From Escherichia coli (GTDB lineage Bacteria; Pseudomonadota; Gammaproteobacteria; Enterobacterales; Enterobacteriaceae): DNA of 64,000 bases. Below, one piece after another: positions 1-6,000 of the stretch. The stretch lies in the NCBI RefSeq assembly GCF_009931435.1, contig NZ_CP043414.1, one strand, 5' to 3'. Every line of letters starts with the position of its first letter. Positions within the stretch are counted from its first letter, which is position 1. The position numbers are program-made.

Positions 1-3000
1 AATTCCCAACGACTGGAAGCACAAGTCCAACCGTTCCTTTCCAGATTACGTTAAGTGAATGTAGCAAAGGGACTACGGGGGTTCGGGTTGCATTTAGCGG
101 GATAGAGGATTTAGAAAATAATACTCTGCTGAAACTGGATGAAGGAAGCAATTCTGCTTCCGGTTTGGGTATTGAAATTCTGGACGGAAATATGCGCCCA
201 GTAAAAATAAATGACCTTCATACCGGAATGCAGTGGATCCCTCTGGCTCCTGATCAGGATAATATTTTGCCTTACTCGGCCCGTTTGAAGTCAACACAAA
301 AGTCCGTCAATCCAGGACTGGTTAGCGCTTCGGCAACATTTACCCTTGAATTTCAATAATCAGAGTCAGATATGAATAGAACTTTCCAAAGACTTCTGTT
401 GGCTACGCTCTGTGCGCTATTTTCAGCAACTCTTCAGGCCGCTGATGTCACTATCACTGTTAATGGTCGGGTAGTTGCTAAACCCTGCACTATTCAAACC
501 AAAGAGGCTAGCGTTAATCTCGGGGATCTTTATACACGCAATCTGCAACAACCAGGTTCTGCATCTGGCTGGCACAATATTACTTTATCATTAACCGATT
601 GTCCGATTGAAACAAGTGCAGTGACGGCAATCGTAACAGGTTCAATTGACAATACGGGTTATTACAAAAATGAAGGTAGTGCCGAAAATATTCAGATAGA
701 GCTGAGGGATGACCAGGATGCTGCGTTAAAAAATGGCGATAGCAAAACGGTTATTGTTGATGAGATCACTCGTAATGCACAGTTTCCACTTAAGGCAAGA
801 GCTATCACGGTGAATGGAAACGCAAGCCAGGGAACGATCGAGGCGCTAATCAATGTGATCTATACCTGGCAATAACATCGATTCGATTTTATAAGCCTCT
901 TTTTTAAATCAATTTTTAACCTAAGGATTTATCATGGGAAAAAAAATTAGTATAAATGTCCTGTTCAGTATTTATTTTCTTTTGATGGCAGGTAAAGTCT
1001 TCGCCTTCAGTTGTAATGTTGATGGTGGGTCAAGTATTGGCGCAGGTACAACTTCTGTGTATGTTAATCTCGATCCTGTCATTCAACCAGGTCAGAATCT
1101 GGTTGTAGATTTGTCTCAGCATATAAGTTGCTGGAATGATTACGGCGGCTGGTACGACACAGATCATATTAACTTAGTACAAGGCTCAGCTTTCGCAGGC
1201 TCCCTACAGTCATATAAAGGATCGCTGTACTGGAATAATGTGACCTACCCCTTTCCGTTGACGACAAATACCAACGTGCTGGATATTGGTGATAAGACAC
1301 CGATGCCCTTACCGTTAAAACTCTATATTACCCCTGTCGGGGCGGCCGGTGGCGTTGTTATAAACGCGGGAGAAGTTATTGCTCGCATTCATATGTATAA
1401 AATTGCAACGTTAGGAAGTGGAAATCCGCGTAACTTTACATGGAATATTATTTCAAATAACAGTGTTGTTATGCCAACGGGCGGCTGTACCGTTGATAGT
1501 CGTAATGTCACAGTGAGTCTCCCGGACTTTCCTGGAAGCGCAGAAATACCCCTGGGCGTATATTGCTCAAGTGAGCAAAAGCTCTCATTTTATCTTTCGG
1601 GCGCTACCACTGACAGTGCCCGACAAGTGTTTGCTAATACAGCACCTGACGCAACAAAAGCATCAGGAGTCGGTGTCTCCCTGATGCGTAATGGAAAAAT
1701 ACTGGCTACGGGAGAAAATGTCTCCCTGGGAACTGTAAATAAAAGCAAAGAACCCTTGGGCTTAAGTGCAACTTATGGACAGACAGGAAGCAAGGTCGCA
1801 GCTGGAGCAGTACAGTCAGTCATTGGCGTTACATTTATCTATGAATAATTGTGATGTTGACCCTGTTATACTTTAGGTTGTGCTTTCCATTCACTAAAAT
1901 TACGCGGATAATTCTTTCCTGAAAGAAATTATCCTACACCTGTAAGAAAATCCGCGCACAATTGAAGTCAGAGTCTTATTTTATATATTGAAAAGTATGT
2001 TAACTTAAAGACTATGAGAGATGATGCTTAACTTATCGCATTTATACTATTCTGTTATTTGACGATAATGAGTTAAAAATAGAATGAGAGTAGCCCCCTA
2101 CTCTCATATATCCAAATGGCCGATAAACCCATTATATATACTGCGCATCATCGCTATTACAAATCCTAATAATTCATTTCCACACAGGATAAGCTGATGA
2201 AGAAAAAAATTGAATCCTACCAGGGAGCTGCCGGTGGTTGGGGGGCTGTCAAATCTGTAGCGAATGCAGTCCGTAAGCAGATGGATATACGCCAGGAAGT
2301 GATTGCCATGTTTGACATGAATAAGCCAGAAGGCTTTGACTGTCCAGGATGTGCATGGCCAGATCCTAAGCACAGCGCGTCATTCGACATTTGTGAAAAC
2401 GGCGCAAAAGCAATCGCCTGGGAAGTCACCGATAAGCAGGTGAATGCCTCTTTTTTCGCTGAGAATACGGTTCAATCATTACTTACCTGGGGAGATCACG
2501 AACTCGAGGCTGCGGGGCGTCTCACTCAACCTTTGAAATATGATGCCGTCAGCGACTGTTACCAGCCATTAAGCTGGCAACAAGCTTTCGACGAAATTGG
2601 CGCACGTCTTCAAAGTTATAGTGATCCAAATCAGGTTGAATTCTATACTTCGGGCCGCACTTCCAATGAAGCTGCCTTTCTTTATCAGCTTTTTGCCCGT
2701 GAATACGGTACCAATAACTTTCCCGACTGCTCAAACATGTGCCATGAACCGACCAGCGTAGGTTTGGCAGCGAGTATCGGCGTGGGTAAAGGGACCGTGT
2801 TACTGGAAGACTTTGAGAAATGCGATTTAGTCATTTGCATTGGGCATAACCCTGGTACAAACCACCCTCGCATGCTGACTTCGTTGCGCGCTTTAGTGAA
2901 ACGGGGAGCGAAAATGATTGCCATCAATCCTCTGCAGGAGCGTGGCCTGGAGCGATTTACCGCACCACAGAACCCGTTTGAAATGCTGACGAACTCCGAG

Positions 3001-6000
3001 ACTCAATTGGCTAGTGCTTACTATAATGTGCGCATTGGTGGCGATATGGCGTTGCTAAAGGGGATGATGCGCCTGTTAATTGAGCGCGATGATGCTGCAA
3101 GTGCTGCGGGTCGGCCCTCATTGCTGGATGACGAATTCATTCAAACGCATACCGTCGGCTTTGACGAGCTACGCCGTGACGTTCTCAATTCCGAGTGGAA
3201 AGATATCGAACGTATTTCTGGACTAAGTCAGACACAAATCGCCGAACTTGCTGATGCATATGCCGCTGCCGAACGAACCATTATCTGTTACGGAATGGGG
3301 ATCACTCAGCACGAACATGGTACCCAGAACGTACAGCAACTTGTCAATCTGCTGTTGATGAAGGGTAACATTGGCAAGCCTGGTGCGGGTATCTGCCCAC
3401 TACGTGGTCACTCTAATGTACAGGGCGACCGAACCGTCGGTATCACCGAGAAACCGTCTGCAGAGTTTCTGGCTCGCCTGGGTGAGCGCTATGGCTTCAC
3501 CCCACCTCATGCACCTGGACATGCTGCAATCGCCAGCATGCAAGCAATATGTACGGGGCAAGCTCGAGCATTGATCTGCATGGGGGGCAACTTTGCACTG
3601 GCAATGCCAGATCGGGAAGCGAGCGCTGTACCGTTAACGCAATTAGATCTGGCGGTACACGTTGCCACAAAGCTTAACCGCTCACATCTGCTGACTGCAC
3701 GGCATAGCTATATTCTGCCGGTTCTGGGACGTAGCGAGATTGACATGCAAAAAAGCGGTGCGCAGGCGGTAACCGTTGAGGATTCAATGTCAATGATTCA
3801 TGCCTCGCGTGGCGTGTTAAAACCCGCAGGTGTCATGCTGAAATCAGAGTGTGCTGTGGTCGCGGGAATCGCGCAGGCAGCGCTCCCCCAGAGCGTGGTG
3901 GCCTGGGAGCATCTGGTGGAAGATTATGATCGCATTCGCAATGACATTGAAGCTGTGCTGCCAGAGTTCGCCGACTATAACCAGCGCATCCGCCATCCTG
4001 GTGGTTTTCACCTGATAAACGCAGCTGCTGAAAGGCGCTGGCTGACGTCGTCAGGTAAGGCTAATTTTATTACCAGTAAAGGGTTGTTAGAAGATCCCTC
4101 TTCGGCGTTTAACAGTAAGCTGGTCATGGCGACAGTGCGCAGTCACGATCAGTACAATACGACGATTTATGGTATGGATGACCGCTATCGAGGGGTATTC
4201 GGTCAACGAGATGTGGTCTTCATGAGTGCTAAACAAGCTAAAGTTTGCGGTGTAAAAAACGGCGAAAGAGTTAATCTTATTGCGCTTACGCCAGACGGTA
4301 AGCGCAGCTCACGCCGCATGGATAGATTAAAAGTGGTCATTTACCCTATGGCTGACCGCTCACTGGTGACCTATTTTCCAGAATCGAATCACATGCTAAC
4401 ACTTGATAACCACGATCCATTAAGTGGCATTCCTGGCTATAAAAGTATTCCGGTTGAATTAGAACCATCAAATTAATTCGCCTCCTCATTTCTTCTGCTG
4501 TCATCCGCACAGCAGAAGAATTCCTCATTGACCATTGTCGCGCAATTTACTCACATGTGCTAAATTAAACTGCTCGCTATAAGATATATACCTCCGCCTA
4601 CAGCTGTAAGAAACTCCGCTCAGTACTGAAGCACCAGTCCTATTTCCTCTTTTTTCCAGCCTGTTATATTAAGCATACTGATTAACGATTTTTAACGTTA
4701 TCCGCTAAATAAACATATTTGAAATGCATGCGACCACAGTGAAAAACAAAATCACGCAAAGAGACAACTATAAAGAAATCATGTCTGTAATTGTGGTTGT
4801 CTTATTACTGACACTTACGTTGATAGCCATTTTTTCGGCAATTGATCAGCTGGATATTTCAGAAATGGGTCGCATTGCAAGAGATCTTACACATTTCATT
4901 ATCAATAGTTTGCAAGACTGAAAATAAACAGCAAATTATAAATATGAAATGTTAAAAAAGTATCGATAAAAACTTTATTGTTTTAAGGAGATAAAATGTC
5001 GCTCGTTTGTTCTGTTATATTTATTCATCATGCCTTCAACGCTAACATTTTAGATAAAGATTACGCCTTCTCTGACGGCGAGATCTTGATGGTAGATAAC
5101 GCTGTTCGTACGCATTTTGAACCTTATGAGCGGCATTTTAAAGAAATCGGATTTAATGAAAATACCATTAAAAAATATCTACAATGCACTAACATCCAGA
5201 CAGTGACGGTGCCTGTTCCTGCGAAGTTTTTACGTGCTTCAAATGTACCGACTGGATTGCTTAATGAAATGATTGCTTATCTCAACTCGGAAGAACGCAA
5301 TCATCATAATTTTTCAGAACTTTTGCTTTTTTCTTGCCTGTCTATTTTTGCCGCATGCAAAGGTTTCATTACACTATTAACTAACGGTGTGCTATCCGTA
5401 TCAGGGAAAGTGAGAAACATTGTCAATATGAAGCTGGCACACCCATGGAAACTAAAAGATATTTGTGATTGCCTGTATATTAGTGAAAGCCTGCTGAAGA
5501 AAAAACTAAAGCAAGAGCAAACGACATTCTCACAAATTCTTTTAGATGCCAGAATGCAACACGCAAAAAATTTGATACGCGTAGAAGGTTCAGTCAATAA
5601 AATTGCCGAAAAATGTGGTTATGCCAGTACATCTTATTTTATTTATGCTTTCCGCAAACATTTCGGCAACAGTCCAAAGAGAGTTTCAAAGGAGTACCGT
5701 TGTCAAAGGCACACGAATATGAACACGGGCAACACGATGAATGCTTTGGCTAATTGATTATTCGCTCACGTATAGTCAACTACAAACGCTAAGTAAGAAT
5801 TAAAGGGGCAGCTATTACCTGCCCCAATCTGTCGTTACGAATTGTATTTCATGATGAGAATTGGTGATATACATCACATATTTATGTATCTAAATAATCT
5901 GTTTCATATTTATTTATGATCCCAATGCAATAAATTGCCATCAAAACACATAAATACACTAAATATCAATTAGTTAGATATTTAGCATTGAGAAATTACT

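Follow-up and report, generated by a model that had tools for sequence, protein, structure and literature searches.

The window analysed here is a stretch of 64,000 nucleotides of the Escherichia coli contig NZ_CP043414.1 (assembly GCF_009931435.1). Its first 9 kb, which match annotated E. coli chromosomes over the full length, carry ydeS, ydeR and ydeQ (fimbrial), ydeP, safA, ydeO, ydeN and ydeM in the same order as in K-12, where the locus runs in the reverse orientation. The gene ydeP (2197-4476, plus strand) encodes a putative oxidoreductase of 759 amino acids with a role in acid resistance. The gene safA (4724-4921, plus strand) encodes a connector of 65 amino acids that activates PhoQ (PMC9496106), and it is co-transcribed with ydeO (4996-5757, plus strand), which encodes an AraC-family activator of gadE (PMC9496106; bioRxiv 10.64898/2026.05.06.723403). 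Identification of both transcription units relied on annotated E. coli records that are 99% identical, together with K-12 synteny, which confirms the initial annotation in placing two predicted EvgA boxes before genes of the EvgAS acid-resistance cascade. These boxes, which are the subject of this analysis, sit in the ydeQ-ydeP and ydeP-safA intergenic regions, and each points toward its downstream gene.

The predicted EvgA box of the ydeP promoter (1931-1948, plus strand) is ATCCTACACCTGTAAGAA, i.e., ATCCTACA-CC-TGTAAGAA, while that of the safA-ydeO promoter (4595-4612, plus strand) is CGCCTACAGCTGTAAGAA, i.e., CGCCTACA-GC-TGTAAGAA, in the same orientation. Both 18-bp inverted repeats occur exactly where and as the initial annotation gave them. 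They are imperfect palindromes about a 2-nt centre with the core CCTACA-NN-TGTAAG; the half next to the promoter, TGTAAGAA, fits perfectly, and the degeneracy lies in the distal half. A search of the 64 kb with the pattern YYCYTACANNTGTARGAA and at most two mismatches returned these two sites only, each on both strands, against an expectation of 0.13; the resulting four hits were reached in none of 100 shuffles, and no further site appeared in the 64 kb when three mismatches were allowed.

In K-12, the same palindrome is found between emrK and evgA (TTCTTACGCCTGTAGGAT), upstream of frc (TTCTTACAACTGTAAGAA, a perfect palindrome), upstream of yfdX (two copies), and upstream of yegR (TTCCTACATAAGTAGGAA). 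According to previous studies, the promoters bound by EvgA comprise emrK/evgA, frc, yfdX and yegR as well as ydeP, safA and gadE (PMC8147483), and the inverted repeats before yfdX and yfdWUVE (frc) are EvgA-binding sites (PMC3720670). Direct binding of EvgA to the emrKY and safA-ydeO promoters has been reported (PMC9496106), an EvgA site is present at all directly regulated genes (PMC4283999), and ydeP is under direct EvgA regulation (PMC7174508), its expression in K-12 being EvgA-dependent (PMC4283999, PMC7174508). A weight matrix was built from the five K-12 sites of emrK/evgA, frc, yfdX (two sites) and yegR, with ydeP and safA excluded. In this matrix scan, the ydeP box ranked first in the window with 23.6 bits, above every shuffle maximum, and the safA box ranked second with 16.6 bits, followed by a third best site of 7.65 bits. 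The fit to the EvgA recognition pattern proposed in the initial annotation agrees with the consensus obtained from these independent K-12 sites, and the weight-matrix scan proposed there as a check puts the two boxes ahead of everything else in 64 kb.

Each box is an 18-bp inverted repeat of the form TTCYTACA-N2-TGTARGAA, lies upstream of the core promoter of an EvgA-regulon gene, and is orthologous to a site with reported EvgA binding. The K-12 counterparts are AGCCTACACCTGTAAGAA at ydeP and TGCCTACAGCTGTAAGAA at safA, each one outer base apart from the box in the window. Inverted repeats that bind EvgA in the K-12 promoters of ydeP and b1500 (safA)-ydeO were reportedly described by Masuda and Church in 2003 and by Itou et al. 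in 2009. Taken together, 1931-1948 and 4595-4612 are predicted with high confidence to be the EvgA sites of the ydeP and safA-ydeO promoters, a pair that is already known from K-12. The present analysis established the sequence and its significance, the orthology with K-12, the register and pattern of conservation, and the paralogy; what is said of binding by EvgA, of induction by acid and of the cascade downstream is taken from the literature. A lone half-site, ATCTTACA, was also seen at 4884-4891 inside safA, about 105 bp upstream of the ydeO start codon; it scores 6.6 bits as a full site, about eight such half-sites are estimated by chance in the window, and it is probably meaningless.

To assess the conservation of the boxes, seven lineages were aligned around ydeP and four around safA, drawn from the window itself, K-12, one B2 strain and two others, together with a divergent genome and a contig of Escherichia. 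The proximal half TGTAAGAA and the AAT that follows it are invariant across lineages. Within the ydeP box, only the N2 spacer and the distal half vary, the latter chiefly at its outer bases; the changes affect the central two nucleotides (CC, CT or TC), the second distal base, and one A that is replaced by G, the base present in the emrK/evgA site. The sequence upstream of the ydeP box has diverged and contains a 12-bp indel among lineages, and a 5-bp indel is present further down in the ydeP leader; from box to start point, no indel was found at either promoter in any lineage. Such a pattern is the footprint expected for a predicted dimer site at a fixed distance from the core promoter.

In both promoters, an extended -10 element is located at +50 to +58 from the box, namely TGTTAACTT at 1998-2006 for ydeP (TG at 1998-1999, hexamer TAACTT at 2001-2006) and TGTTATATT at 4662-4670 for safA (hexamer at 4665-4670), both on the plus strand, and every copy of ydeP and safA keeps TG-n-TAnnTT unchanged. 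No recognisable -35 element precedes either extended -10, which fits activator dependence of both promoters. The K-12 ydeP leader construct of a previous study spans -178 to +10 (PMC11210196), and K-12 position -178 is an A that follows the box at 66 nt and the TAAYTT hexamer at 8 nt; it corresponds to A 2014 of the window. The 5' end of this construct points to 2014 as the start point of ydeP, relative to which the box centre lies at about -74.5. Because TGTTATATT is exactly as far from the safA box as its counterpart is from the ydeP box, the safA transcript is predicted to start near 4677, with a leader of about 47 nt. A sigma-70 scan gave TTGAAG-16-TATATT (1962-1989) for ydeP and nothing for safA; this candidate was rejected as the main promoter because the safA paralogue has not kept it and the published leader starts at a position that does not suit it, and the extended -10 was preferred because it fits both promoters.

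The similarity of the two promoters, which the initial annotation had put at about 30 bp, is real but was underestimated. A stringent local alignment pairs 1933-1981 with 4597-4645, and a permissive one extends over about 120 bp, pairing 1933-2051 with 4597-4719 (86/117 identical), with a score of 39 compared with 13.4 +/- 2.2 in shuffles (maximum 25). In an ungapped comparison from the end of the box to the start point, with the box itself excluded, 39 of the 66 positions match against 17.4 +/- 3.4, a count reached in none of 20,000 shuffles, while the 66 nt upstream of the boxes match at chance level (15/66). The comparison of ydeP and safA without the box gave z = 5 to 8.7 in three lineages, and downstream of the box neither promoter resembles those of emrK, evgA, frc, yfdX or yegR.

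The ydeP spacer from box to -10 (1949-1997, plus strand) and its paralogue at safA (4613-4661, plus strand) belong to a series of blocks that occur in both promoters at equal offsets. These are TCCGC at +3 (1951-1955 and 4615-4619), TGAAG at +15 (1963-1967 and 4627-4631), AGTCYTATTT at +24 (AGTCTTATTT at 1972-1981 and AGTCCTATTT at 4636-4645), and TGYTAnnTT at +50. Where the ydeP and safA promoters differ from one another, the difference is itself kept across lineages, indicating that the duplication predates the lineages compared, and no sign of recent gene conversion between the two promoters was found. The earlier proposal of duplicated promoter modules is upheld by this homology, which runs from the box past the start point, unlike at other EvgA promoters. 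Sequence comparison supports the view that the two promoters arose as paralogous copies of a module of about 120 bp, comprising the box, the spacer, the core promoter and the early leader. The extent of about 120 bp, the exact register and the conserved blocks of the module are a mildly new addition to what was known.

The same similarity might instead reflect convergence under shared regulators rather than common descent, since EvgA was reported to activate both promoters (PMC9496106, PMC7174508), and the reported inputs of RcsB at ydeP (PMC7174508) and of PhoP and YdeO at safA, the promoter of which both of the latter are reported to repress (bioRxiv 10.64898/2026.05.06.723403), would allow shared operators to hold short blocks in place. 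However, the two promoters resemble each other continuously and without any shift of register for 84 nt, and the similarity reaches into the leaders to about 120 bp and is found between the blocks as well, while the other EvgA promoters show none of it. We consider convergence unlikely, and for the extended similarity less likely than duplication. Duplication alone could in turn account for two copies of the palindrome, which would then be functionless remnants of the duplicated segment, or the palindromes might be a product of chance, as the position of the safA box score within the shuffle maxima would allow. This explanation is already contradicted by the invariance of the proximal half-site and of its distance to the -10 element while the flanks diverge with indels. 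Moreover, both paralogues retain CCTACA-N2-TGTAAGAA at an overall identity of only about 60-73%, and two sites were found against 0.13 expected, both in the right intergenic regions; we give chance or decay almost no credence.

It could also be argued that the palindromes serve another member of the LuxR/NarL family, for example RcsB (by itself or with a partner), GadE or NarL/NarP, and that EvgA acts only indirectly. Loss of RcsB was reported to abolish the acid induction of ydeP (PMC7174508). The stretches TAAGAAAATCC and TAAGAAACTCC, which follow the proximal half-site, superficially resemble an RcsB box with a spacer one base short. Nevertheless, the RcsB pattern TNRGAN4TCYNA has no match in the entire window, and the NarL/NarP 7-2-7 pattern (TACYYMT-N2-AKRRGTA) misses both boxes at up to three mismatches, with a window total at the chance level. 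The GAD box is a different sequence, present in the window at gadB only, and the palindrome marks exactly those promoters that were described as EvgA-bound, so that a different regulator at these sites appears very improbable.

Several points nonetheless weigh against direct activation of both promoters by EvgA from the two boxes. A site at -74.5 is by itself insufficient to explain activation, and RcsB is reported to be required as well (PMC7174508), yet a canonical RcsB box was not found. The 16.6 bits of the safA box fall inside the maxima of shuffled 64-kb sequences (mean 13.0, largest 19.5), and its case leans also on position and orthology for this reason. In addition, EvgA binding at these exact boxes is a prediction from sequence and K-12 orthologues, the consensus is a re-derivation from five K-12 sites and secondary citations, the start point of ydeP rests on the 5' end of an in-vitro transcript and not on mapping, and evgAS lies outside the window and, in K-12, far from ydeP.

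According to the literature, EvgS is activated by mild acid and phosphorylates EvgA, a response regulator of the NarL/FixJ type. With the boxes read as EvgA sites, the phosphorylated EvgA dimer would bind each box as its primary site. As neither promoter has a usable -35 element, both would be silent until the activator recruits RNA polymerase, which EvgA may contact from upstream, possibly aided by factors on the conserved spacer; a class-I-like activation geometry and a role for the spacer blocks are thus part of what we infer. In this way, EvgA would turn on ydeP and safA-ydeO in parallel. In the cascade described in the literature, YdeP contributes to acid resistance, SafA activates PhoQ/PhoP, and YdeO activates gadE and, through it, gadBC and the remaining glutamate system.

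The blocks between about -63 and -33 (TCCGC, TGAAG and AGTCYTATTT), which are absent from other EvgA promoters, could dock extra inputs, although we put this forward only as a tentative and rather doubtful proposal. The inputs might be RcsB at ydeP, low-affinity EvgA dimers of the kind known for BvgA, or PhoP and YdeO at safA. If true, docking at these blocks would explain a joint response of the ydeP and safA units that is distinct from that of the rest of the regulon. The best secondary EvgA half-site between box and -10 is GTCYTATT at +25 in both promoters, a weak match of only 2.5 bits. In the frc and proximal yfdX promoters of K-12 (boxes at L002 15507-15524 and 16501-16518), CTCTCTGATT was observed post hoc about 21-32 nt after the boxes; in the alignment test, however, these two promoters stayed short of z > 3. 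It was also seen, again post hoc, that AGTCYT or AATCCT occurs at exactly +24 to +29 at ydeP, safA, emrK and yegR (L002 5514-5531; L003 5414-5431).

The distribution of the system was investigated by a protein-guided scan of one genome per species. Relatives of ydeP were found in Edwardsiella (85% amino acid identity), Yersinia rohdei, Raoultella, Tatumella, many Burkholderiaceae and others. Among about 47 loci with ydeP homologues outside Escherichia, none carries a site of at least 10 bits, and their homology to the window stays within the coding region, while boxes were present at the expected places in every Escherichia-derived locus scanned. EvgS/EvgA and SafA were reported only in E. coli and Shigella (PMC9496106 and another source), which fits the absence of boxes at the ydeP loci of other genera. 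Upstream of ydeP in Edwardsiella, Yersinia, Raoultella and Tatumella, no homology to the promoter module was found. The distribution as a whole suggests that the EvgA-dependent promoter module was joined to ydeP within Escherichia. In Edwardsiella, the nucleotide homology covers the ydeP coding region only, beginning at the start codon or just inside it, and neither safA nor ydeO was found near ydeP. This coding-only homology (L006, L007 and L009) suggests horizontal transfer of a bare ydeP gene. One 'Candidatus Nanosynbacter' metagenome-assembled genome (L004) contains the Escherichia ydeP-safA locus at 99% identity, which is almost certainly a binning contaminant.

About 5,300 complete genomes match the ydeP-safA segment of the window at 94-95% identity, and only 18 records do so at 99% or more. 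The nearest allele is that of strain N96 from a Tibetan pig (99.8%), and positions 30000-39000 are without any match of at least 99%. The window therefore looks like a minor or divergent E. coli lineage with an atypical allele at 1-9000 and 30000-39000. In the related E. coli NZ_CP092252.1 (H15), an IS3-family insertion is present in the locus and safA is annotated twice, and in NZ_ABACVG020000001.1 (H1/L055), the closest full-length match, ydeP is annotated as frameshifted.

We also identified several features around the two transcription units. A hairpin with a perfect 12-bp stem, TTCTTCTGCTGT ... ACAGCAGAAGAA, follows the ydeP stop codon (4487-4517, plus strand) and is invariant between lineages. 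It was not called by the consensus terminator scan, its T-run being poor; it probably terminates ydeP transcription and so separates the ydeP unit from the safA-ydeO unit. The 5' leader of ydeP (2014-2196, plus strand, if transcription starts at 2014) contains a conserved hairpin at 2084-2107 (+71 to +94) with a 10-bp stem, ATGAGAGTAG-CCCC-CTACTCTCAT, and small changes among lineages. On the minus strand, this element resembles an intrinsic terminator and is followed by TCTATTTTTA, and a mechanically called minus-strand open reading frame (2104-2373) ends adjoining it. The 187-nt ydeP leader folds better than shuffles (z = -3.3), and an Rfam scan of the window gave no known RNA family in or near it; the sole match in the window is SECIS_3 (51912-51970, minus strand, 83.8 bits), presumably inside a formate dehydrogenase gene. 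Further downstream, a perfect 20-bp GAD box, TTAGGATTTTGTTATTTAAA, is located at 27670-27689, just upstream of the gadB-gadC open reading frames (27700-29169 and 29325-30860), so that the EvgA boxes at the top of the cascade and this target of GadE/RcsB at its bottom are about 23 kb apart in the window.

The two boxes represent the entry to the EvgAS acid-resistance cascade (EvgA-YdeO-GadE-gadBC and SafA-PhoQ), which serves survival of stomach acidity. For K-12, their confirmation brings nothing new. The present analysis shows that a divergent allele has preserved both sites together with their orientation and their exact distance from the core promoter, and that the boxes are absent wherever ydeP occurs without EvgAS. 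The map of the paralogous module with its conserved blocks also offers a mutagenesis target for the reported RcsB dependence.

The closest known counterparts are the K-12 EvgA boxes of ydeP and safA-ydeO, which have the same genes, synteny, 18-bp palindrome and distance to the core promoter; the window differs from K-12 as another allele or lineage, with one outer base changed per box, and no functional difference is predicted. The boxes of emrK/evgA, frc, yfdX and yegR share the palindrome TTCYTACA-N2-TGTARGAA with ydeP and safA but have no downstream similarity to either. Among them, yfdX has two boxes 38 bp apart, and the frc box is a perfect palindrome, whereas the distal halves at ydeP and safA are degenerate. 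A further comparison is offered by BvgA, a relative of EvgA, whose sites at fha and ptx in Bordetella are inverted heptads of the TTTCCTA type, with further dimers filling in toward the -35 region. The ydeP and safA promoters appear to differ from BvgA promoters in that no convincing secondary half-sites were found between box and -10 (best 2.5 bits); they have in common with them the half-site core TTCYTA and a primary site placed well upstream of the core promoter.

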